DNA of 64,000 nt, from UHGV virus genome UHGV-0211740; one strand, written 5' to 3'. A model generated the notes under the pieces. That model saw only the letters and a program-made list of their open reading frames with translations, searched no databases and was not told the DNA's origin. This DNA comes from a virus. The stretch's first letter is position 1; every line of letters begins with the position of its first letter. Positions 38,713 to 61,891 of the stretch are shown here, piece by piece. Made by a program: the position numbers and the translations under genes.

Positions 38713-39669
38713 TCATTGCATATAGTCCTCGTTGTGGAAATAGTAGTCAAGTATCTCACGACGTTCCTGCTCAAGGAGGCAGTTCCACACATCCTCTGTG
38801 TAGTTGTTACGAATGAAGTTTACCATGCCATAAAACTCTTCGTCAATACGTTTAAAGATATCCTCATCCCAAATCTTCCAAGCTCTCCCTCTCATTACGG
38901 CCTTCCGTGCCAGGTAGTATGGAGATTTGATCTTCAACTGCAGGTCATAAGGGTAGTAAGGATTACGGATCATGTACCCTTCGCCCCTTGTTTCTGCAGC
39001 TAATTCTTTTGCATAGCTGAACGGAATTTCACGCACAGTGTGAGGACGTTTTGCACCAAGATACTTGGCAATACCGTCTAAAGCCGCTTCTGGTAGCATT
39101 ATTCCAGAATCATTGTATCTACAACCTATCAAATACGCACCATGATCCTCATGAACAATATGCGGGTCTGAAGGGTGACAAATTTCAAACATAAATGTCA
39201 TGTTTTCATGGCCCATAACCTTCTTGATAAGATCTAAATTGCCACATTGCTCCTGAATGGTTTCCTTTGCAAGGTTACAATATGGAGAATCAAGAGACCC
39301 AGTCGTTGAGAATAATAGTTCACCTTTATGAGAGGATACCACGCCAAGGAACCCGTTCTTTTTCTCTACAGCCGTCACAAGCTTATTGTCAGGTAGGTTG
39401 GTTGAGTTTTCTCCCAAGTTAAACACTTTTGTGAAGGGCCATGCCACAACATTCCCCTCGTTACCGACAACAATGCCTCGGCACTCCAGTAGACGCGGAG
39501 AAAAATGCCATAAATTGTTGTAGAATACTTTTCTGGCATATTTGTAGATCTTTAATCCGAGATCTGGATAATACCGACTGGTTACAAGACCTTTATCCAC
39601 TAAATCATCTGCATTAAAATACTTCATCATGCGTTCCTCATTTGTCATTTTGTTCCACAATCTTCCCAC
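38713..39669 (-). CDS. RNA ligase, Rnl1 (T4 RnlA) family
   Basis: LLECRGIVV, KVFNLGEN, motif I VEKKNGF, motif IV EGYMIR and motif V LKIKS line up with T4 Rnl1. Confidence 0.75.
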   Translation of the reverse strand: MGRLWNKMTNEERMMKYFNADDLVDKGLVTSRYYPDLGLKIYKYARKVFYNNLWHFSPRLLECRGIVVGNEGNVVAWPFTKVFNLGENSTNLPDNKLVTAVEKKNGFLGVVSSHKGELLFSTTGSLDSPYCNLAKETIQEQCGNLDLIKKVMGHENMTFMFEICHPSDPHIVHEDHGAYLIGCRYNDSGIMLPEAALDGIAKYLGAKRPHTVREIPFSYAKELAAETRGEGYMIRNPYYPYDLQLKIKSPYYLARKAVMRGRAWKIWDEDIFKRIDEEFYGMVNFIRNNYTEDVWNCLLEQERREILDYYFHNEDYMQ

Positions 39670-40166: not shown

Positions 40167-40721
40167 ATGAAATATTTTATAACAAGTGACACACACTTTC
40201 TCCACCAGCGTGTTATGGAGTTCGATTCTTGTCAAAAGCACAGATCGCAGTATAACCACGATCTTGATAGCATGAATGCAGGGATCATAGACAAGTGGAA
40301 CTCAATTGTGTCACCATGGGACACTGTGTTCCACTTGGGAGACATTGCATGCACTAAGGATAAGAATATCAACAACTTACTGCCTGAAATTCTAAATATG
40401 CTGAACGGACATATTATTCTTGTTCGTGGTAACCATGACACAAGGACGACTGTCAGAATTATGAAAGAGTTCTGTCATGAGGTTGTAGATTATTACGAGC
40501 TTCGCCACAACAAGAATCTGATCTGTATGAGCCATTACCAGTTTGCAACGTGGAACAGAAAGCCCCACGGATCAGTTCAACTGTTTGGTCATGCTCACGG
40601 AACCACACAACAGTTATTTGGCAGGCAGTTGGATGTTGGTTGGGATGTATGGGGTAGACTGTTACCACTAGAAGAGGCATACAGCCTTGCAATGAGTTTT
40701 GATATTGACAGCAGGGAGTAA
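40167..40721 (+). CDS. calcineurin-like metallophosphoesterase
   Basis: Motifs SDTHF, LGDIA, RGNHD and GHAHG of the binuclear metallophosphoesterase fold. Confidence 0.7.
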   Translation: MKYFITSDTHFLHQRVMEFDSCQKHRSQYNHDLDSMNAGIIDKWNSIVSPWDTVFHLGDIACTKDKNINNLLPEILNMLNGHIILVRGNHDTRTTVRIMKEFCHEVVDYYELRHNKNLICMSHYQFATWNRKPHGSVQLFGHAHGTTQQLFGRQLDVGWDVWGRLLPLEEAYSLAMSFDIDSRE

Positions 40722-40768
40722 TCCCTGCTATATTAAAGAAAATAGCCACACAAGGAGAATCAGGAGAT

Positions 40769-41119
40769 ATGAAAGATGAGGATAAGCTGCCCTATCTTAA
40801 AGTCCCACTTGGGATACTTTCTCTGTCGAAAGTTTTGAATACTACAACTGGAGAGGTGGTTATTCTTGATCTGTATGACAAGGTAGTATACTGCTACCTG
40901 CACAACTGGTATAAGCTTGGAGGAAATTCACGATTCACACCGAGCACAAGGAAAATTGCAGCTGATACAGGGATTAAGAAAACAAAAGCAGCAGAATGCG
41001 TTAGAACTTTAGAGTGTGCGGGGATAGTTGAAACTTCCACACAAGGGAGAGGGAAAAGATGCACATTTTCTAAAGTTTTACCACCAGAAGAAGTGATTCG
41101 CATGTCAACAACTGGTTAG
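40769..41119 (+). CDS. hypothetical protein, possible winged-helix DNA-binding protein
   Basis: 116 aa; STRKIAADTGIKKTKAAECVRTLECAGIV resembles a wHTH; lies just upstream of the palindrome array. Confidence 0.35.
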   Translation: MKDEDKLPYLKVPLGILSLSKVLNTTTGEVVILDLYDKVVYCYLHNWYKLGGNSRFTPSTRKIAADTGIKKTKAAECVRTLECAGIVETSTQGRGKRCTFSKVLPPEEVIRMSTTG

Positions 41120-41195
41120 ACCAGTAAAAACTTAAATATTTGTATTATAAAGGTATGTATGTTTTATGTCCACACCAGCACAAAGATTACAAACT

Positions 41196-41274
41196 GTCCG
41201 TGAGACGGACACTACTGTCCGCCACGCGGACACATCTGCCCGTAATACGGACACTAACTGTCCGTGATACGGAC
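41196..41274. promoter_or_regulatory. array of four 15-bp palindromic operator-like sites
   Basis: GTCCGTGAGACGGAC, GTCCGCCACGCGGAC, GCCCGTAATACGGAC and GTCCGTGATACGGAC at 41196, 41217, 41238 and 41260; 21-22 bp periodicity. Confidence 0.55.
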
Positions 41275-41779
41275 ACATAAAGAATATAACTAAAATAACT
41301 AAAGAATAAAAATAAAAAGATCTAGTACTTATTGTACTAAAGTGCATATACTTAACTTATGTAGAATATACTAGATCTAAAGTACTATGTTTTAAATTTA
41401 TTACTTACTGGTATAGTGTCGGCCCTTCATTGGCACTCGCCTATGAGGGGCGAGATGCCGGGCCTCCATAGTGCACACAATAACAGGCGTGCATACGTGC
41501 ATGGCTGTTCACATGTGTGGGAGCGAAGCTATAGCGCAGGCCAAAGGCCGAGCACTAATGTGGACCGCCGACGAAAGCTTGCCAGCGCAGTAAGGAGTCG
41601 GTTGGGAGTCTCCCGCGCGAGTTTGTTTAAAGTTTATGTGTGGAAACTGGCAAGAAGGCCTCTAAATCGCTCTACAGCTGTGTGAACTACACTGGGTAAG
41701 GCAATCACACCAGTTTGATAGAAAAGCTCGTTACAAAGCGATACAGTGAGTTTTTCTATAACCTGAAGAGGAGTCAGCT

Positions 41780-42358
41780 ATGAGCTCACGCAAACATGAC
41801 CGAGAAAAGATTGCAAAACGTTATCAGGATGAAGAACAGATGGAGAAAACTTTCAAGTGGAGGCCAGGTTTCCAGCGCAATCATTCGGACGCTCGTGATC
41901 GTAAGCATCCAGATAAGTGGTTAACACCGCCAAACGATGACATGCAAGTCGGTGATGAGAAGGAGTTGTCACCGGGGAAAGATGGCAACTACATTCGCAC
42001 TAAGGAAGCTGGTCCAAAGGATGACAGCTATCTTGTAGATAAGGTTCTTGCTAGTATTGATGTAGATGTTGATACTGTACGAGACACTTTCCTTGGTTGG
42101 TATCGCACAGGGTTTTTCGACATCAAGGCTATTCGTCGTGTTTGCGATATTAAAAAGTCTGCCTACGATGACGACTCTCTACATCGCACTCTAAGACAAT
42201 ATTCAGAGAGATACGGTCATCCAGTTATCACTCTTGACGATATTAACGAAGTGATGTATCATGTAGAGGTTGTTGCAGGTAGGTTCGGTGATGCATATCT
42301 CGGTATTCTTTCTGCAAAGGATGAGGTAATGTTAAATAAAATTTACTATGAACGCTGA
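41780..42358 (+). CDS. hypothetical protein
   Basis: 192-aa ORF, first long plus-strand ORF after the control region. Confidence 0.5.
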   Translation: MSSRKHDREKIAKRYQDEEQMEKTFKWRPGFQRNHSDARDRKHPDKWLTPPNDDMQVGDEKELSPGKDGNYIRTKEAGPKDDSYLVDKVLASIDVDVDTVRDTFLGWYRTGFFDIKAIRRVCDIKKSAYDDDSLHRTLRQYSERYGHPVITLDDINEVMYHVEVVAGRFGDAYLGILSAKDEVMLNKIYYER

Positions 42359-42876: not shown

Positions 42877-43164
42877 GGTTGTTTTCATGTATGATGATGA
42901 ATATCCAATTTAAAGACGAATTTGATGGCTTTATCTCCGGATGCTTTGAAACAGGATTCGGAGAAGGCTGAGTTCCCCCTAGAGGGCTTGATAGTGCACC
43001 ACACTTAAAATGGTAGGGGCAGCCAGCACATGACGATGTGACCCCAGCCAACCTGTAATAAGGTCGAGCCCAAGCGCGGTAATGGGTCTCTGGTAACCCA
43101 CTTGTTGGGTCTTGCTGGTCCAGGACGCTGGACAAGTCGCAGGGAACACCACCCTGCGGCGAAC

Positions 43165-43193
43165 TTGACAATTAGTATCTGCCGTGATAAAAT
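43165..43193 (+). promoter_or_regulatory. sigma70 consensus-like promoter
   Basis: TTGACA, 17-bp spacer, TAAAAT; upstream of 43222. Confidence 0.45.
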
Positions 43194-43659: not shown

Positions 43660-43734
43660 GCCCTGTTAGCTTAGTGGATAAAGCAGCGGCCTTCTAAGCC
43701 GTTGACACTGGTTCGAGTCCAGTACGGGGTGCCA
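43660..43734 (+). tRNA. tRNA-Arg (anticodon TCT)
   Basis: 7-bp acceptor stem, T-arm CTGGTTCGAGTCCAG, anticodon loop CTTCTAA, 3-prime CCA encoded. Confidence 0.75.
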
Positions 43735-43738
43735 AATC

Positions 43739-43825
43739 GGGGAGTTATACCGTAGAGGTAGCGGTGTAGACTGTAAATCTATTGTCATTGCGACTCGGGT
43801 GGTTCGACTCCATCACTCCCCACCA
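43739..43825 (+). tRNA. tRNA-Tyr (anticodon GTA)
   Basis: Acceptor GGGGAGT/ACTCCCC, anticodon loop CTGTAAA, long variable arm, T-loop GGTTCGACTCC, CCA encoded. Confidence 0.75.
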
Positions 43826-43936
43826 AAATCCCATATTTGTGATAAATAATATAGATAATGACATTGATGTTTATCGTCGTTTATACTAGTCCCTAACTGT
43901 TCGAAAATCAGTGTCATTATCAGTGTTGTTTATAAA

Positions 43937-44026
43937 AGAGAGTAGGGAGCATGGTGCTCAAGCGGTCTTGAAAACCGTCCCGTTGAGATATCCTCGATGA
44001 TGGTTCGATTCCATTACTCTCTGCCA
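43937..44026 (+). tRNA. tRNA-Ser (anticodon TGA)
   Basis: Perfect 7-bp acceptor AGAGAGT/ACTCTCT, anticodon loop CTTGAAA, long variable arm, T-loop TTCGATT, CCA encoded. Confidence 0.75.
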
Positions 44027-44124
44027 GATCGTGGATCATGAAATTAAGCGAGCGCCGGAAGCAGAACCGGATTAACAAATGTTACAGTCGTCATCGCCGA
44101 CTAGCAGCATGATCCACATAATAT

Positions 44125-44221
44125 GCTAGGTAAGCCCTTTGGCAAGGGCGAGGATTTTTAATCCTGAAAATAGACGAAGCAGTCGTTGAATACATAGGTG
44201 GTTCGATTCCATCGCCTAGCA
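44125..44221 (+). tRNA. atypical 97-nt tRNA-like gene (possible pseudo-tRNA or non-canonical tRNA)
   Basis: Perfect acceptor stem GCTAGGT/GCCTAGC and canonical T-arm GGTGGTTCGATTCCATC, but no clean 5-bp anticodon stem with 7-nt loop (closest is AGGA/TCCT with loop TTTTTAA) plus about 30 nt of extra internal sequence; no encoded CCA. Confidence 0.35.
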
Positions 44222-44228
44222 CCTTTTT

Positions 44229-44304
44229 GCTGATGTAGCACAATTGGTAGTGCAATTGATTTGTAATCAATAGGTTGCAGGTTCAAGTCCTGCCATCAGC
44301 ACCA
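44229..44304 (+). tRNA. tRNA-Thr (anticodon TGT)
   Basis: Acceptor GCTGATG/CATCAGC, anticodon stem-loop ATTGA-TTTGTAA-TCAAT, T-loop GGTTCAAGTCC, CCA encoded. Confidence 0.8.
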
Positions 44305-44305
44305 T

Positions 44306-44380
44306 GTCCCTGTAGCTGGAAGGTTCAAGCAAGCGACTCATAATCGCCAGACGGTGGTTCAATTCCACCCAGGGCCACCA
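44306..44380 (+). tRNA. tRNA-Met or Ile2 (anticodon CAT)
   Basis: Acceptor GTCCCTG/CAGGGCC with one mismatch, anticodon loop CTCATAA, T-arm GGTGGTTCAATTCCACC, CCA encoded. Confidence 0.7.
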
Positions 44381-44391
44381 AATTATAAATA

Positions 44392-44468
44392 CTCCGCGTA
44401 GCTCAGCTTGGTAGAGCGCCTGATTTGGGATCAGGAGGTCGAGTGTTCGAATCACTCCGTGGAGACCA
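44392..44468 (+). tRNA. tRNA-Pro (anticodon TGG)
   Basis: C1-G72 acceptor CTCCGCG/CGTGGAG, D-arm AGCTCAGCTTGGTAGAGC, anticodon loop TTTGGGA, T-loop GTTCGAATC, CCA encoded. Confidence 0.8.
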
Positions 44469-45285: not shown

Positions 45286-45569
45286 GAGTTGCTGCACTAC
45301 TTATTATGTGCTTGTTATTATGTGGGTGTACAACCAGCGTTGAGAGAGAATACAAGATTGACCCTCCGGATGTAGGGAGGTTGATTGTTAAACCACCAGA
45401 GGGTGCCATGAAACCACCTGCTAAAGCCGTGCCTTTGAAGAAGGGTGCCCCGGATGCGGTGAATTCTGGCATTATGAGGGATAATAACCTATCTTGCAGT
45501 AATGATAGAGCTAAATTAATCATTTTGCAAGACTATATTAGAACACTGTTTCCAAAGGAGAGAGGTTAA
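45282..45569 (+). CDS. putative o-spanin (Rz1-like lipoprotein)
   Basis: Lipobox LLLCGC near the N-terminus, proline-rich mature region, overlaps i-spanin stop. Confidence 0.55.
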   Translation: MRVAALLIMCLLLCGCTTSVEREYKIDPPDVGRLIVKPPEGAMKPPAKAVPLKKGAPDAVNSGIMRDNNLSCSNDRAKLIILQDYIRTLFPKERG

Positions 45570-45994
45570 TGTCTAAGATTTACGGACCGTGTTCTGAAAA
45601 GCAGAAGATGATCCTGGAAAATGATGCAGATATTTTGGTAATTGGCGGGGCTGCAGGATCTGGCAAGTCATTCCTCTTGCAGCTAATGCCGCTTAAAATT
45701 ATTGATGACCCGCACAGCTCTGTGGTTATGTTCCGAAGAACAACCCCACAGTTGGAAGGTGAGGGGGGACTATGGCCTAAAGCAGTAGCTATTTATAGTG
45801 ATCTGCCAGAAAACATTAAGCCAAAGTTTAGAGAGAAGGATCATAAGTTCATTTTTCCACGGTTTGATCCGAGCACTGGCAAGTGGGACAGGAGCAAAAA
45901 GGGAGCTGTTGTAAAATACTGCCACATGGAATATGTCCAAGATAAGCTTAACCATCAGGGTTTGGAATACACCATGGTTTGCTTCGATGAGGGT
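45569..45994 (+). CDS. terL: terminase large subunit, exon 1 (ATPase N-terminal part)
   Basis: Walker A GGAAGSGKS and Walker B MVCFDE; reading frame terminates at a TAA that begins the intron. Confidence 0.75.
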
Positions 45995-46877
45995 TAATTT
46001 GTAGCTCTCGTAAAACCTCCCTAATTGCGGGGAAATCTTTATTATTGACACCACCAATCTGTCATGGTAACATGATAGAGGCTTCGAAGAGAGATCGAAG
46101 GTATGGTAACAGTGTGTTAATTTAGATAATCCGCAGCGAAGCATCCGAGAGGATGAACGTTCAACGACTAGTCGAAAGACGTAGAATCAAGCGATTCGAA
46201 ACGGGAGGGTGCATGTGTAATACTAAAAAATGTATGGATTGCCAAAGAGTTCTACCTATTGATGATTTCTTTTTATCATCTAAGAGCAAGGATGGATACT
46301 CAGGTACATGCAAGGAATGCTATATGTACTACAGGAAGGGTGGATCTCGTAAAAACAAAAATATGGTTAAGAGAGATGACGCAGCATTGTTTATTCAAGA
46401 CTTGCTGAAGAAAGGTGAACTTTTTGAATGCAAATCTTGTCATAAAAGTATGCTCGCTGATAGTTTTTACACAAAACGTGACTATGGCAAAGTATATCTG
46501 GTTACGAACAGGTGTAAGATGTGTGAAAAGTTTTATCAGATTGAGAAGAAATTTCACATAACAAAAGATGAATACTATCGTCTACTCTCAGATCAAGATC
46601 ATAAGTGTGCCATTTGTAGAATATCTCTTGATGAGTATAGGACGCAAGGGTACAGAGATTTCTTTTGTGTTGATCATGACCATAAAACTGGTGCTGTAAG
46701 AGGGTTGCTTTGTGATAAATGCAACAGAGCTTTAGGCTTCTTCCAAGAAGATGAGGAAACTATTCTTAAAGCGGCAGAATATTTACACATTCATAAGATA
46801 TAGTCTGGTCTGCATGGAGACATGCAGCTGCCTGAAAATGGCGGGGCAAGACTAGCGACCTTGCCCGAACATAAACG
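45995..46877 (+). mobile_element. group I self-splicing intron carrying a homing endonuclease ORF (3-prime boundary approximate)
   Basis: Core elements in canonical order: P AATTGCGGGGAAA (~46030), Q AATCCGCAGC (46128), R GTTCAACGACTAGTC (46159), S AAGATATAGTCTGG (46795); internal guide GCTCTC pairs with exon end GAGGGT. Confidence 0.65.
46153..46803 (+). CDS. intron-encoded homing endonuclease, Endonuclease VII/HNH-like
   Basis: Cys-rich N-terminus and CVDHDHKTGAVRGLLCDKCN Endo VII core; ORF lies between intron R and S elements; true start may be an internal ATG. Confidence 0.65.
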   Translation: MNVQRLVERRRIKRFETGGCMCNTKKCMDCQRVLPIDDFFLSSKSKDGYSGTCKECYMYYRKGGSRKNKNMVKRDDAALFIQDLLKKGELFECKSCHKSMLADSFYTKRDYGKVYLVTNRCKMCEKFYQIEKKFHITKDEYYRLLSDQDHKCAICRISLDEYRTQGYRDFFCVDHDHKTGAVRGLLCDKCNRALGFFQEDEETILKAAEYLHIHKI

Positions 46878-47999
46878 ACACAATTCGAATGGGAGCAGAT
46901 AGACTATCTGATGTCTCGTTTGCGATCTCAGTCAAAGTATCCATCAAGAATGGTTATCAGCTGTAACCCCGACTCAGAGCATATGCTTGCCAAACTGGTT
47001 AGATGGTGGCTGGACGATGAAGGGTATCCAGATCCGGAGAAATGTGGCAAGAAAAGATATTTTATCCGGCGTGACGGTGAATTTATTTGGGGAGACTCTA
47101 AAGAGGAGTTGATAGAGAAATACACCACAGTTAATGGACTGGGTGTGGAGATCAAGCCAAGACCGTTGTCATTCTCGTTTATAGGCGCAACAATATTCGA
47201 TAATCCTGTCTGCTTGAGAGACAACCCAGAATACCTTGCTTTCCTTGAAGGTCTGCCAGAACTGGAAAAAGCTCAGCTTCTTCATGGTAACTGGTTTGCC
47301 AAACCTGAGGGTGCGAACTACTTTCAAAGATCTTTCCTTCGTGATGCCGACAGCGTACCTTTAGGGTCTGTGTCTTGCAGGGCATGGGATAAAGCTGGAA
47401 CTGAAAGAACTTCAGGTAATAAATTCCCTGACTTTACTGCCAGTGTCAAGGTAAGTAAAGATAGTGATGGATTCTACTACCTGTCAGGAGATTATTGTCC
47501 GGAGAACGTGGATGACGGGAGATATTCCACAGGTCTGGAAGGCAAGTTCTGTAAAAAGGCTGGCGAACGAGATGTGATCATCAGGAAACAGGCGCAGTTT
47601 GATGGTGATGATTGTATAATCGTATTCTCTGTGGACCCCGGTCAGGCAGGTAAGAGTGAGTTCTTAACCTCATCCAGATCCTTGCTCGCCGAAGGTTTCA
47701 GGGTTGAAGAAGACCCAATGCCTTCCAACAAATCTAAACTGACAAGGTTCTCACCTTTTGCCAATCTTGCCCAACAAGGGATGGTGAGGATTGTAAAATC
47801 CAGTTTCCATCCTGATACTTTGGAAGCATTTCTGACTGAACTTGAAAAGTTCAACGGGGAAAGATCAACATTTAACAGAAAAGACGACTGGGCCGACTGT
47901 GTAGCATCTGCGATTAATTTCCTGGAGAAAGAGGAGGTAGCACTGCCTTGTGTGATCCCATCAATATCATCACCTTCTATGTTTAAGCGTTTTATCTAA
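46878..47999 (+). CDS. terL: terminase large subunit, exon 2 (ATPase C-motif and nuclease domain); exon start approximate
   Basis: In-frame continuation with no stops from 46875; contains VISCNP coupling-motif-like segment and C-terminal nuclease-like acidic residues; possible splice acceptors after G at 46877, 46892, 46895 or 46898. Confidence 0.65.
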   Translation, partial: TQFEWEQIDYLMSRLRSQSKYPSRMVISCNPDSEHMLAKLVRWWLDDEGYPDPEKCGKKRYFIRRDGEFIWGDSKEELIEKYTTVNGLGVEIKPRPLSFSFIGATIFDNPVCLRDNPEYLAFLEGLPELEKAQLLHGNWFAKPEGANYFQRSFLRDADSVPLGSVSCRAWDKAGTERTSGNKFPDFTASVKVSKDSDGFYYLSGDYCPENVDDGRYSTGLEGKFCKKAGERDVIIRKQAQFDGDDCIIVFSVDPGQAGKSEFLTSSRSLLAEGFRVEEDPMPSNKSKLTRFSPFANLAQQGMVRIVKSSFHPDTLEAFLTELEKFNGERSTFNRKDDWADCVASAINFLEKEEVALPCVIPSISSPSMFKRFI

Positions 48000-54226: not shown

Positions 54227-54691
54227 ATGCTAAAGGTTAAATGTCAAACAAGGTTCAACCTAAAGCGTTTAGATCGCTTTTACAAAGAACTTGTGAAACT
54301 TGAGAGCAAAACAATAACCTACGGCTTTTATGACGAACCTCACCCTTCGGGCTTAAATATGGCGACATTGGCAGCTATTCACAACTTCGGTTGGAACGGG
54401 CTGCCTGTTCGCAATTTTATGGAGACAGCCTTTGCATTTCACAGCACTCAGCTGCAGACCTTAACAGAAAAATTGTTGAGAGCTATGGCTAGAGGGTCAA
54501 ATGCAGAGGCCATTCTTAGGCAGATGGGGGATACAGGGGCCAAAGCTATCCAGTTTGTTATTGAGGCTGGGCAGTTTAGTAATCCTACGGTTAGTGAGCA
54601 GTGGGCACAAGAGAAGGGCTTCAACGAAGCTATGCGGCATTATGATGTGCTGCTTGAATCTGCAACCTTTAAAATTGGACAGCAAAAATAA
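54227..54691 (+). CDS. putative head-tail connector/neck protein
   Basis: 154-aa ORF in neck region. Confidence 0.4.
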   Translation: MLKVKCQTRFNLKRLDRFYKELVKLESKTITYGFYDEPHPSGLNMATLAAIHNFGWNGLPVRNFMETAFAFHSTQLQTLTEKLLRAMARGSNAEAILRQMGDTGAKAIQFVIEAGQFSNPTVSEQWAQEKGFNEAMRHYDVLLESATFKIGQQK

Positions 54692-60979: not shown

Positions 60980-61891
60980 ATGGTATCGGAGTGTCCTGGA
61001 GAGGTTATGCCAAGTAATATAGTTGATGAAAAAGACCTGTACAAGCCTCAAGAGGTTAAATCTCCAAAGGCTGAAAAGGCAGAGCAGCAAACTGAAAGTG
61101 ATGTAAAGTATACTATGTTTGTCAGCGGTCTTAACTACGGCGGTCGCAATATAGAGATGAAGGGTAAAAACTTCACTAACGACCTTGCCATTATCTTCGA
61201 TCAGGTTGAGAATTATTCTTTTAAACAAACGGTCGATAAGTCAGATTTTGCAGTAGAAGATAAGTCTACCCTGTCAGATCATGCAGTGGTTAAGGATGGG
61301 GTATTTTCTTTCACTGGTCGGGTAAATACATCCCCTCATATAATTTATGAGCAAAACTACATTGATAGAAACACTGACTCCAAAAACCCTGCAGCGTCTA
61401 TGCGACCTGGTGCGGCATTAGAAGCTTTGACAGAGATCATTAATAAGCGACAGTTGGTTTCTTTAGTTACCGAGGAGAGACTCCTTGAAAACTACATTAT
61501 AACCAGTCTTTCTGCCAACAAGTCTGTTGGTGAAGGTGCTGCAATGGTGTTTGATGTGGAACTTACAGAATTCCGCACATTCTACTTGAACAAGGTTGTT
61601 AATGCAACTGTATACAGCAATCCTAAGAAGGTCGGCAAGACTCAGCAAAAAGGTGCTGTCAACGATTGCAAGAATGGTAGTAACGTAGGTAACAAGAGAG
61701 ACACAGGGGCATTTGCAGACACCGCGTCCACAAATGCTGCAGAAGAGTGGCAGCCATACAAATCTATGATGTGGACAGATGAAAACGGTGTTACCCAATC
61801 GGCTGCAGATTGGTACTATCAGGAATATGGAAGACCTTCCACCATAGTCCCATCTGAGCAGGGAAACTACAACAAAGTTAACGGAAAATAA
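60980..61891 (+). CDS. putative tail/baseplate protein
   Basis: 303-aa ORF after the tape measure gene. Confidence 0.4.
   Translation: MVSECPGEVMPSNIVDEKDLYKPQEVKSPKAEKAEQQTESDVKYTMFVSGLNYGGRNIEMKGKNFTNDLAIIFDQVENYSFKQTVDKSDFAVEDKSTLSDHAVVKDGVFSFTGRVNTSPHIIYEQNYIDRNTDSKNPAASMRPGAALEALTEIINKRQLVSLVTEERLLENYIITSLSANKSVGEGAAMVFDVELTEFRTFYLNKVVNATVYSNPKKVGKTQQKGAVNDCKNGSNVGNKRDTGAFADTASTNAAEEWQPYKSMMWTDENGVTQSAADWYYQEYGRPSTIVPSEQGNYNKVNGK

Follow-up and report, generated by a model that had tools for sequence, protein, structure and literature searches.

At the lambda origin, four dyad-symmetric repeats lying about two helical turns apart are bound by the N-terminal winged-helix domain of the O protein; an AT-rich tract follows, and beyond this tract there is a 28-bp palindrome. 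The repeats reside inside the O gene, the C-terminal domain of O recruits P-DnaB, and lambdoid phages exchange initiator and iteron specificities as a pair. In the oriV of the IncQ plasmid RSF1010, iterons and an AT-rich stretch stand beside the ssiA and ssiB hairpins, which serve as single-stranded priming sites for a dedicated primase. Very stable mini-hairpins of the GCGAAGC type are known from IncQ plasmids and from single-strand initiation origins of the G4 and phiX type. At T4 oriF and oriG, the T7 primary origin and ColE1, a transcript beside an easily melted tract primes replication by way of an R-loop, the ColE1 RNA II being a long multi-hairpin RNA. Small elements can also draw on a larger phage, as in the sharing of cos between P2 and P4 and the hijacking of ICP1 replication by PLE: equipped with an initiator and iterons of their own, they depend on a lytic myovirus helper and share or target its machinery. 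Iteron origins, finally, are defined by a winged-helix Rep protein, iterons of 17–22 bp in two to seven copies, phased binding and an adjacent AT-rich unwinding element (PMC4980987).

For the rV5-type phages, which are common in therapy and biocontrol collections, the origin is so far undefined. The authors of the rV5 genome were unable to place it by GC skew, because the skew coincides with the switch in transcription direction; they also found that the phage encodes its own primase-helicase and a polymerase related to that of ICP1 (PMC3606486). A concrete and testable origin module whose initiator and iterons can be swapped would close this gap. The window, by which is meant the whole 64-kb stretch of DNA analysed here, is the genome of a Vequintavirus (rV5-like) myovirus, and its segment 41100–41800 matches 119 phage records at 80–98% identity, the closest being OX460980 (97.6%). 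A first-pass annotation had singled out an AT-rich block and a GC-rich island within this segment, and had proposed a replication origin, a structured non-coding RNA or a long regulatory leader for the gene at 41780. Its observations are confirmed in part and its interpretation is supported in part. The origin is the best supported of the three candidates, with chances that seem about even, and it gains its support mainly from two features just outside the coordinates then considered and absent from that annotation: four palindromic repeats (41195–41275) and a winged-helix gene (40769–41119).

The reading proposed here is that 40769–41410 may constitute an iteron-type origin module, and that the adjoining island may be an origin-coupled structured element, acting as RNA or single-stranded DNA, which is shared with probable satellites. 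Judged on the sequence evidence set out below, this reading could equally well prove right or wrong. Among textbook origins that of lambda comes closest, with four dyad repeats, an AT-rich tract and structured sequence beyond; IncQ oriV with its priming hairpins is a second parallel. The lambda repeats lie inside the O gene whereas those here follow a gene of 116 codons, and in place of the 28-bp palindrome there is a structured element of about 280 nt. Moreover, lambda O has a C-terminal domain for recruiting P-DnaB, while the protein here is a bare DNA-binding domain, matched weakly by 'O-like' PHROG families. With the origins of RK2 (oriV), F, P1, R6K and pPS10 the locus has in common a winged-helix Rep-like protein, phased iterons and an adjacent AT-rich element (PMC4980987). 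By contrast, the plasmid iterons are direct and those here palindromic, DnaA boxes are common there and absent here, and iteron plasmid origins do not require a structured element such as the island. To our knowledge, none of these plasmid origins carries it. Compared with the IncQ, G4 and phiX-type signals the island is longer and modular, it shows no sequence similarity to Microviridae or other phages, and the primase is not known to act at it. The T4, T7 and ColE1 origins work without iterons or an initiator; at the present locus no promoter was found for the island, nor any sequence similarity to these origins. The small elements which share the island differ from the satellites of P2 and ICP1 in being plasmids rather than integrated islands and in encoding their own major capsid protein and tape measure, and their dependence on a helper is putative.

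Initiator-like gene, palindromic repeats and AT-rich tract

Upstream of the locus are genes for an RNA ligase (38713–39669, minus strand), a polynucleotide kinase/ATPase and a phosphoesterase (40167–40721), in that order. The winged-helix gene (40769–41119, plus strand) is preceded by a sigma70-type promoter-like site, TTGACA-18-TATATT (40705–40734, plus strand), which was found in a promoter scan and is equivalent in position to promoter P76 annotated in the rV5 record. A non-coding stretch of 660 bp separates this gene from one for a 192-aa protein of PHROG 12226 (41780–42358, plus strand). Downstream of the latter lie three small genes, then a second non-coding GC-rich stretch with no similarity to the first; six tRNA genes occupy 43660–44468, and farther on are spanins, a split gene for the terminase large subunit, the portal and the major head protein.

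By its Pfam and PHROG matches the 116-aa protein is a winged-helix DNA binder, and a candidate origin-binding initiator. It consists of the DNA-binding domain only, matching Pfam HTH_36 (E 1.6e-5) and DUF6945. It matches PHROG 12838, 'replication initiation protein', at E 3.5e-72 and, more weakly, the N-terminal DNA-binding domains of the longer initiator families 8102, 428, 678 and 270, one of which is 'O-like'. The protein is confined to the genus: it was found in 119 phage records, and a set of 5.8 billion proteins contains five clusters of it. Three other Vequintavirinae genomes (two Seunavirus and one Mydovirus) possess a small winged-helix gene of the same initiator-like PHROG family, situated where transcription diverges and flanked by short repeats and an AT-rich tract with a GC content near 20%; the GC island is absent from these three loci.

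The winged-helix gene is separated from the repeats by a fast-evolving spacer (41120–41188), the most diverse part of the region (diversity 0.115), inside which the promoter scan found a minus-strand promoter-like site (41172–41144). The repeats themselves are four palindromes of 17 bp with the form TGTCCG-N5-CGGACA, at 41195–41211, 41216–41232, 41237–41253 and 41259–41275. Their start-to-start spacings of 21, 21 and 22 bp correspond to two helical turns. This is the sole cluster in the 64 kb: seven matches to the motif were found where 1.05 would be expected, and those three that do not belong to the array have two mismatches apiece and are at chance level. Among 18 aligned genomes the array has a diversity of 0.024, compared with 0.039–0.054 for the neighbouring genes, and in relatives the number of repeats is six (L017) or three (L021 and L033). 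Read as iterons, the repeats lie within the range of two to seven phased copies of 17–22 bp and are unlike classical iterons in being palindromic. No DnaA box (TTATNCACA, at most one mismatch) was found within 41100–41800.

Two diverged relatives, the IMG/VR contig L007 and the Logan assembly L023, retain the phosphoesterase gene, the GC island and the 192-aa gene. In both, a remotely similar winged-helix protein of 143 aa replaces the 116-aa protein, and the repeats are different palindromes, ATCTGATRCA...TGYATCAGAT, in four to five copies. The protein and the repeats that it adjoins have thus been replaced jointly, which is what one would expect if the one binds to the other, and the winged-helix protein may be the cognate binder of the repeats. 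That the GC island is kept while initiator and repeats are swapped marks it as a separate conserved unit.

Beside the iterons lies the AT-rich tract (41278–41410; 20–27% GC, diversity 0.021), a candidate DNA unwinding element. It begins with A-rich direct repeats, 18-mers in three copies (repeat family D2, 41278–41317), and in sequence it has the make-up of the AT-rich element of iteron origins: 130 bp at 20% GC with short internal repeats. The extreme composition reported earlier for 41281–41410 (20% GC) is borne out, since the window has a mean GC of 43.1% (sd 4.4%, 150-nt windows) and the block is one of just two 150-nt troughs at or below 27% GC in the 64 kb. A different A-rich tract is found at this place in L007 and L023, and in plasmid copies of the locus CTAATAGATAAAG... 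is found at the same relative place.

Two smaller features once noted in the tract have fared less well. The 10-bp inverted repeat AGATCTAGTA / TACTAGATCT (41318–41378) is present, with arms at 41318–41327 and 41369–41378, the left arm starting one nucleotide before the 41319 given for it. It is neither above chance nor conserved, however: an arm of at least 10 nt arises in 6.5% of dinucleotide shuffles of the AT-rich region (P=0.065), the right arm is altered without compensation in relatives, and the repeat is missing from L007 and L023. It is probably not a functional unit. The sequence AGTACT does occur twice in the tract (41324 and 41381), with six copies in the whole window, but the enrichment is marginal (P=0.035) and carries no weight. 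A further motif, AGATCT, considered as a phage promoter motif behind the inverted repeat, was rejected, its 52 copies being mostly intragenic and having no common flank.

The 116-aa protein is labelled 'replication initiation protein' in RefSeq records and 'putative transcriptional regulator' in many others, and the nearest solved structures in a sequence search are an uncharacterised protein and regulators of the CodY and GntR type. These labels and structural neighbours would suit a transcription regulator for which the palindromes, lying upstream of the AT-rich region, are operators or activator sites, the tract combines a promoter and an upstream element, and the island is the long, structured 5′ leader of the 41780 operon; the invariant hairpin and Shine–Dalgarno sequence directly before the 41780 gene would fit such a leader. 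In the AT-rich tract, however, scanning revealed no promoter of the sigma70 type, and the number of iterons changes freely. A homolog of the 41780 gene exists without the island, and the plasmids which carry the island lack this gene, have their promoters downstream of the element, and offer the iteron array as the only origin candidate in the parts examined. Regulation of the 41780 operon is therefore a distinctly improbable explanation of the locus as a whole.

An origin, by comparison, is supported by the initiator-like gene, the phased palindromic iterons, the cassette swap and the same order of elements in the plasmids, and at the level of sequence the locus has the phased repeats and the AT-rich element that help to define an iteron origin, together with a candidate winged-helix initiator. 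Under this reading dimers of the winged-helix protein would occupy the four phased palindromes just downstream of its own gene, binding to the repeats would help to melt the adjoining AT-rich tract, and replication would start here. GC skew, which had been suggested as a check, is ambiguous: the cumulative minimum falls at 39–40 kb, some 1.5 kb from the module, but as it coincides with the switch in transcription direction it is not independent evidence.

Structure and conservation of the GC-rich island

The GC-rich island that had been described after the AT-rich block is equally real. Its 100-nt windows reach 54–58% GC, and no other stretch of the 64-kb window stays at or above 55% GC for as long as 41400–41665. 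The island is non-coding. The only open reading frame that had been remarked in it (89 aa, 41416–41685) was thought not to look like a protein, and this judgement holds: its diversity in 18 aligned genomes is flat across the three codon positions (0.047, 0.048 and 0.039), whereas the genes flanking the island have a 3- to 7-fold excess of variation at the third. Several genomes have 1-nt indels in the frame and four have an 18-nt deletion, it has no Pfam match, and the small ORFs called within the island differ between annotators.

The island opens with hairpin P1 (41421–41464, plus strand), composed of an outer stem (41421–41425 / 41460–41464) and an inner stem (41432–41441 / 41449–41459) in which A41455 is bulged. 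The following segment (41465–41557, plus strand) contains TGTGTGG at 41514, a GGCC-AAA-GGCC hairpin and, at 41521–41527, the GCGAAGC mini-hairpin sequence. It is variable, differing in L007 and L023, and since V5, MaxTheCat, A6-1 and Pr121LW tolerate the 18-nt deletion (41477–41494), that part of the island is dispensable. In rV5 itself, some of the variable sequence is missing. Next is a conserved core of 62 nt (41558–41619, plus strand), in which a helix (41567–41572 / 41597–41602) encloses GCU-UGCC-AGC and a CM(GNAA)GG hairpin (41588–41595), M being A in the window and C in all other sequences. The 3′ part (41620–41700, plus strand; diversity 0.060) has a second TGTGTGG at 41637, is again variable and aligns poorly with L023 and the plasmids. 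A small hairpin with an AAC loop at about 41680–41692 looked compensatory by eye, but its pairing is broken in several phages.

Folded as a single sequence, the island is somewhat more stable than its shuffles on both strands (z -2.8 and -2.0). With the phage sequences alone, RNAalifold gave a covariation term of +0.45 and double changes at four of 97 pairs; there is too little variation among phages for the structure to be testable on them, and a covariation signal emerged only once the plasmid copies were added. The P1 hairpin, with 15 pairs, is then 100% paired in 13 distinct sequences, a result equalled by six of 500 shuffles, slid controls giving 35–47%. Its inner stem, GGCACTCGCC...GGCGAGATGCC, which the first-pass annotation had picked out as a hairpin, is invariant in the phages; in plasmid NZ_CP020521 it reads GTCACTCTCC...GGAGAGATGAC, two G-C to U-A double changes (T-A in DNA) leaving the stem intact. 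The core helix, (A/G)CCGAC...GTCGGT in phages and GCTGCC...GGCAGC in plasmids, is likewise 100% paired at all six pairs, three of which covary (A-U/G-U/G-C, C-G/U-A and A-U/C-G), and none of 500 shuffles reaches its score. The GNRA-type loop of the core hairpin varies solely at its free position, being GUAA or GGAA. In total the two helices provide five covarying positions, the rest of the island giving no signal, and as the compensatory changes mostly split the phage from the plasmid clade they represent few independent events. The sequence comparison thus supports base pairing in these two helices, whether as RNA or as single-stranded DNA. Apart from the plasmid and metagenome copies, no sequences more distant than L007 and L023 were available for covariation, the flanking proteins being genus-specific.

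The plus strand is favoured by the A-U/G-U/G-C series, the GNRA loops and a G.T pair in a hairpin at 41718–41759, while folding energies are mixed as a guide to strand. In the phage, scanning yielded neither a promoter nor a terminator attributable to the island.

A covariance model of the core (R1) has a single match in the window, at 86.9 bits, and each genome proved to contain one copy and no more. There was no match in the loci examined from other genera, nor in a locus with a 50% homolog of the 192-aa gene, and among 50,697 phage records the core is limited to Vequintavirus. One copy of the island was found in IMG/VR and none among species-representative genomes. The Rfam scan that had been recommended was carried out with the covariance models of Rfam 15, whose families include RNase P RNA, 6S, tmRNA, Y RNA, GOLLD/ROOL and ribozymes. 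In the window tRNAs alone pass the gathering threshold, and searches of 2.4 kb and of 400 nt at E values up to 10 gave nothing meaningful for the island. RNase P RNA was considered separately, as CCGGGCCTCCATAG (like CR-I) and AGGCCAAA resemble conserved regions of M1 RNA. It was rejected because no covariance-model match appeared at E up to 10 on 400 nt and because GAGGAAAGUCC, which precedes the resembling stretch in E. coli M1 RNA, is absent from the island.

Copies of the island in 13-kb plasmids

An unexpected result was that the 62-nt core ties the phage to 13-kb plasmids which encode capsid and tail proteins. Parts of the island, in two blocks, recur at 83–89% identity in circular E. 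coli plasmids of 13.2–13.7 kb, a group that includes pE275a_13, NZ_CP035869.1 and NZ_CP020521.1; one plasmid of 39.6 kb carries three copies, and a pattern scan of metagenomes added two contigs with the element (13.9 and 15.5 kb). The core is 83–89% identical between the phage and the plasmid or metagenome copies, while its flanks have diverged beyond alignment. Searched against the 50,697 phage records, the plasmid element matches Vequintavirus only, and by the core only.

The plasmids share more than this element with the phage, at lower levels of identity. In NZ_CP020521 the major head protein belongs to PHROG 29, the same family as that of the window (23% identical, E 1e-10), and the tape measure has its widest-covering match, of those records listed, in an rV5-like tape measure (77% covered at 25% identity). 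A neck/tail-completion protein is 46% identical to the product of 54314–54655 in the window, a tail protein 52–57% to that of 61157–61693 and a small protein 63% to that of 2541–2750. The core is therefore far better conserved between phage and plasmids than the proteins they share (23–63% identical). The same plasmid encodes a Rep-like helix-turn-helix protein, and a comparison of ten of its 15 annotated proteins with the PHROGs gave no match to a terminase or portal family. A capsid and tail gene content related to the phage gives these molecules the appearance of satellites or reduced relatives of rV5-type phages, and on the sequence evidence they are probably satellites. A literature search found no paper describing 13-kb capsid-bearing plasmids nor, for Vequintavirus, any transcriptome, mapped origin or account of satellites.

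In these plasmids, which fit the iteron plasmid pattern, and in the metagenome contigs, five or six 23-bp iterons lead into an AT-rich tract of short length; after it come a strong GC hairpin, the modular element with the core, promoters and the Rep-like gene. The iteron sequence differs from plasmid to plasmid. Since the molecules replicate as plasmids, and the parts examined offer no origin candidate besides the iteron and AT-rich region, this region is the candidate, and the element is oriented relative to it as in the phage. Within the element, mini-hairpin modules in varying number are separated by TGTGTG(TG)GG. Two other motifs were tried and rejected: T7-type primase sites (GGGTC/TGGTC) after TGTGTGG, which occur in some plasmid modules and not in the phage, and a boxA-like CGCTCTTT, found in two plasmid modules and not conserved in the phage.

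The promoter-like and terminator-like sites flanking the plasmid element lie on strands opposite to those expected for a plus-strand RNA. The origin-proximal edge has terminator-like hairpins on the minus strand only, and sigma70-type promoters of the region are located solely after the structured element. These flanking signals are nevertheless compatible with a transcription unit of its own, and hence with the island being the gene for a free-standing, trans-acting non-coding RNA, a regulator or anti-defence decoy useful to phage and satellites, whose proximity to the origin would be incidental. Such a gene would account for a GC-rich island with several stable hairpins in an AT-poor setting, for the two covarying helices with a GNRA loop varying only at its free position, and for the A-U/G-U/G-C series, which is consistent with a plus-strand RNA; the surroundings are also rich in RNA biology (RNA ligase, kinase and six tRNAs). 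The structured RNA proposed earlier is therefore upheld as far as covariation in two helices is concerned, but not by any Rfam family, with E values up to 10 allowed on the 400 nt. In addition, the phage sequence yielded neither a promoter nor a terminator for it, and from one copy to another its hairpin modules have been reshuffled, lost or duplicated. Loops of 3 nt prevail among the mini-hairpins, a size more typical of folded DNA than of RNA, and the fixed place of the island after an AT-rich tract in unrelated initiator contexts is left unexplained. An RNA gene placed here by accident is thus rather unlikely.

The traffic of the element between phage and plasmids could alternatively mean that the island is without function of its own, a patch of DNA recently recombined between them and for this reason highly identical. 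Module shuffling, the occurrence of P1 in one plasmid only (NZ_CP020521), which points to recombination, and the tolerated 18-nt deletion would all agree with this. It is hard to reconcile with a core that is present in all of the approximately 120 phage genomes and in every plasmid copy, at a diversity below that of synonymous sites, with the preservation of two helices by compensatory changes, or with flanks which have diverged past alignment where the core has not. A neutral patch is accordingly very improbable.

The genomes of rV5-type phages are circularly permuted and packaged by headful (PMC3606486; PMC13211470), and the core might in principle be a pac site for the phage terminase which the plasmids have copied for packaging by a helper. 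The plasmids encode capsid and tail proteins, and the ten proteins scanned in NZ_CP020521 include no terminase or portal match; the best-conserved sequence common to phage and plasmids is precisely the core. The element is situated some 4 kb before the gene for the terminase large subunit and shares its strand with the genes in between, and TGTGTGG is repeated in the phage and more numerous in the plasmids. However, a site recognised as duplex predicts no compensatory changes that keep intrastrand pairing, and no record in the collection begins at the core. A pac site is usually located in or beside the gene for the small terminase, and no such gene was recognised within 4 kb. The link of the core to iterons and an AT-rich tract would also be unexplained, and packaging as the primary role of the core is considered improbable.

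A possible two-part origin and a probable leader element of the downstream gene

If the 13-kb plasmids are satellites, as is probable, the element would represent the portion addressing the machinery that phage and satellite have in common, with initiator and repeats interchangeable. The island keeps its place through the exchange of initiator and repeats and is better conserved than the shared proteins, which suggests contact with that common machinery, be it the phage replisome, the primase-helicase or a host factor. In an origin of this kind the island (41421 to about 41700) would be a separate base-paired element cooperating with the iterons and the AT-rich tract. It could take the form of a primer or R-loop RNA, or of folded single-stranded DNA beside the melted tract; the likeliest form is a structured transcript, or else a single strand that folds at the border of the opened DNA. 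There it may help in priming or in loading the phage primase-helicase and replisome. A more far-reaching proposal, which is offered tentatively, is that the island is an undescribed cis-acting structured element, the invariant half of a two-part origin, and at the same time the handle by which 13-kb plasmid satellites, an undescribed family with capsid and tape-measure genes of their own, gain access to the replication or packaging machinery of lytic Vequintavirus phages.

The island matches no known RNA family and yet is the best-conserved sequence between phage and plasmids. Through the core, the comparison points to a satellite-helper system of a virulent coliphage and to the exact sequence of the interaction. 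Were this to be true, satellite parasitism of rV5-like phages and a role for structured DNA or RNA at phage origins would become directly testable.

The third of the original candidates, a long regulatory leader for the 41780 gene, does not account for the island: plasmid copies occur without the gene and have their promoters after the element, and elsewhere a homolog of the 192-aa gene, 50% identical, follows a spacer of 60 nt that lacks the island. It fits at most the last 80 nt or so of the non-coding stretch. Here an invariant 12-bp hairpin, ATAGAAAAGCTC / GAGTTTTTCTAT (41718–41759, plus strand; segment diversity 0.020), stands just before the Shine–Dalgarno sequence of the 41780 gene. The G.T pair in its stem fits the plus strand only, and this hairpin is probably an mRNA leader element.

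Candidate origins in other genera and a plasmid family with phage structural genes

In three loci from Mydovirus and Seunavirus genomes, a divergent intergenic region (L004, 2987-3265; L005, 2773-3483; L006, 2953-3227) adjoins a gene for a 105-aa initiator-like winged-helix protein (PHROG 8102, E 7e-36). The intergenic region holds repeats of 20-23 bp together with a tract of about 20% GC. From this arrangement, these regions may be regarded as candidate origins for Mydovirus and Seunavirus, sharing the general design of that in the window.

The plasmid element is carried by a family whose members are circular plasmids of E. coli and contigs from metagenomes (L024, which is NZ_CP020521.1, L025-L029 and L031). 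Most are 13-15 kb in length, although one plasmid record of 39.6 kb is included, in which the element is present three times. Each copy examined in the family has its own type of iteron. The gene content is described from L024, the member which was analysed in full: it encodes a major head protein, a tape measure protein and neck and tail proteins, all distant kin of those of the window phage, along with a Rep-like gene of its own. These plasmids and contigs are probably satellites of rV5-like phages; we found no paper describing the family.

Islands, promoters and short motifs in the window

A second non-coding island, which is also GC-rich (about 55%), lies at 42950-43165. Its sequence is unrelated to that of the first GC island, and an Rfam search with it gave no match. 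A strong sigma70-like promoter (43165-43193) begins exactly where this island stops, and downstream of it lies the gene for a protein of 114 aa whose N-terminus is very basic (KKRRRRGRPLK) and which belongs to PHROG 3330, a family of unknown function. A further promoter-like site (TGGACA-17-TATAAT, 11/12 matches) is found on the minus strand at 41172-41144, oriented so that it would read into the winged-helix gene from its 3' end; conservation of the site among relatives is only partial.

A homolog of the 192-aa protein encoded downstream of the first island, 50% identical, occurs at 5001-5564 of L022, a Logan contig (DRR174583), in different, phage-like surroundings. DNA ligase and two unknown genes precede it, the gap to the preceding gene is just 60 nt, and the GC island is absent from this locus.

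The motif TGTGTGG, which in the plasmid element also lies between successive hairpin modules, occurs 24 times in the window versus 9.7 expected. Six plus-strand copies recur at a spacing of roughly 400 nt (465, 898, 1302, 1704, 2131 and 2403) within 400-2500, a region of GC-rich peaks and exclusively short ORFs which includes the window's other AT-rich trough (1211-1375). Separately, AGATCT is present in 52 copies in 64 kb, compared with about 16 expected from length alone; their flanks share no motif and nearly all are intragenic.

The terminase gene and probable mislabelling of database records

The terminase large-subunit gene (45569-47999) is present as two ORFs, split by an endonuclease VII/HNH-like ORF at 46153-46803. 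This agrees with the terminase gene of rV5, which is reported to be interrupted and to bear a homing endonuclease.

Eighteen UNVERIFIED 'Campylobacter phage' records (MG0656xx, for example L016) are rV5-like coliphage genomes with about 90% identity to the window, and their host labels are probably wrong. The PLSDB entry CP057073.1, a 137,565-bp E. coli 'plasmid' from cattle faeces, appears to be a phage genome deposited as a plasmid, since the entire query matches it at 90% identity and its size is that of a complete rV5-like genome.
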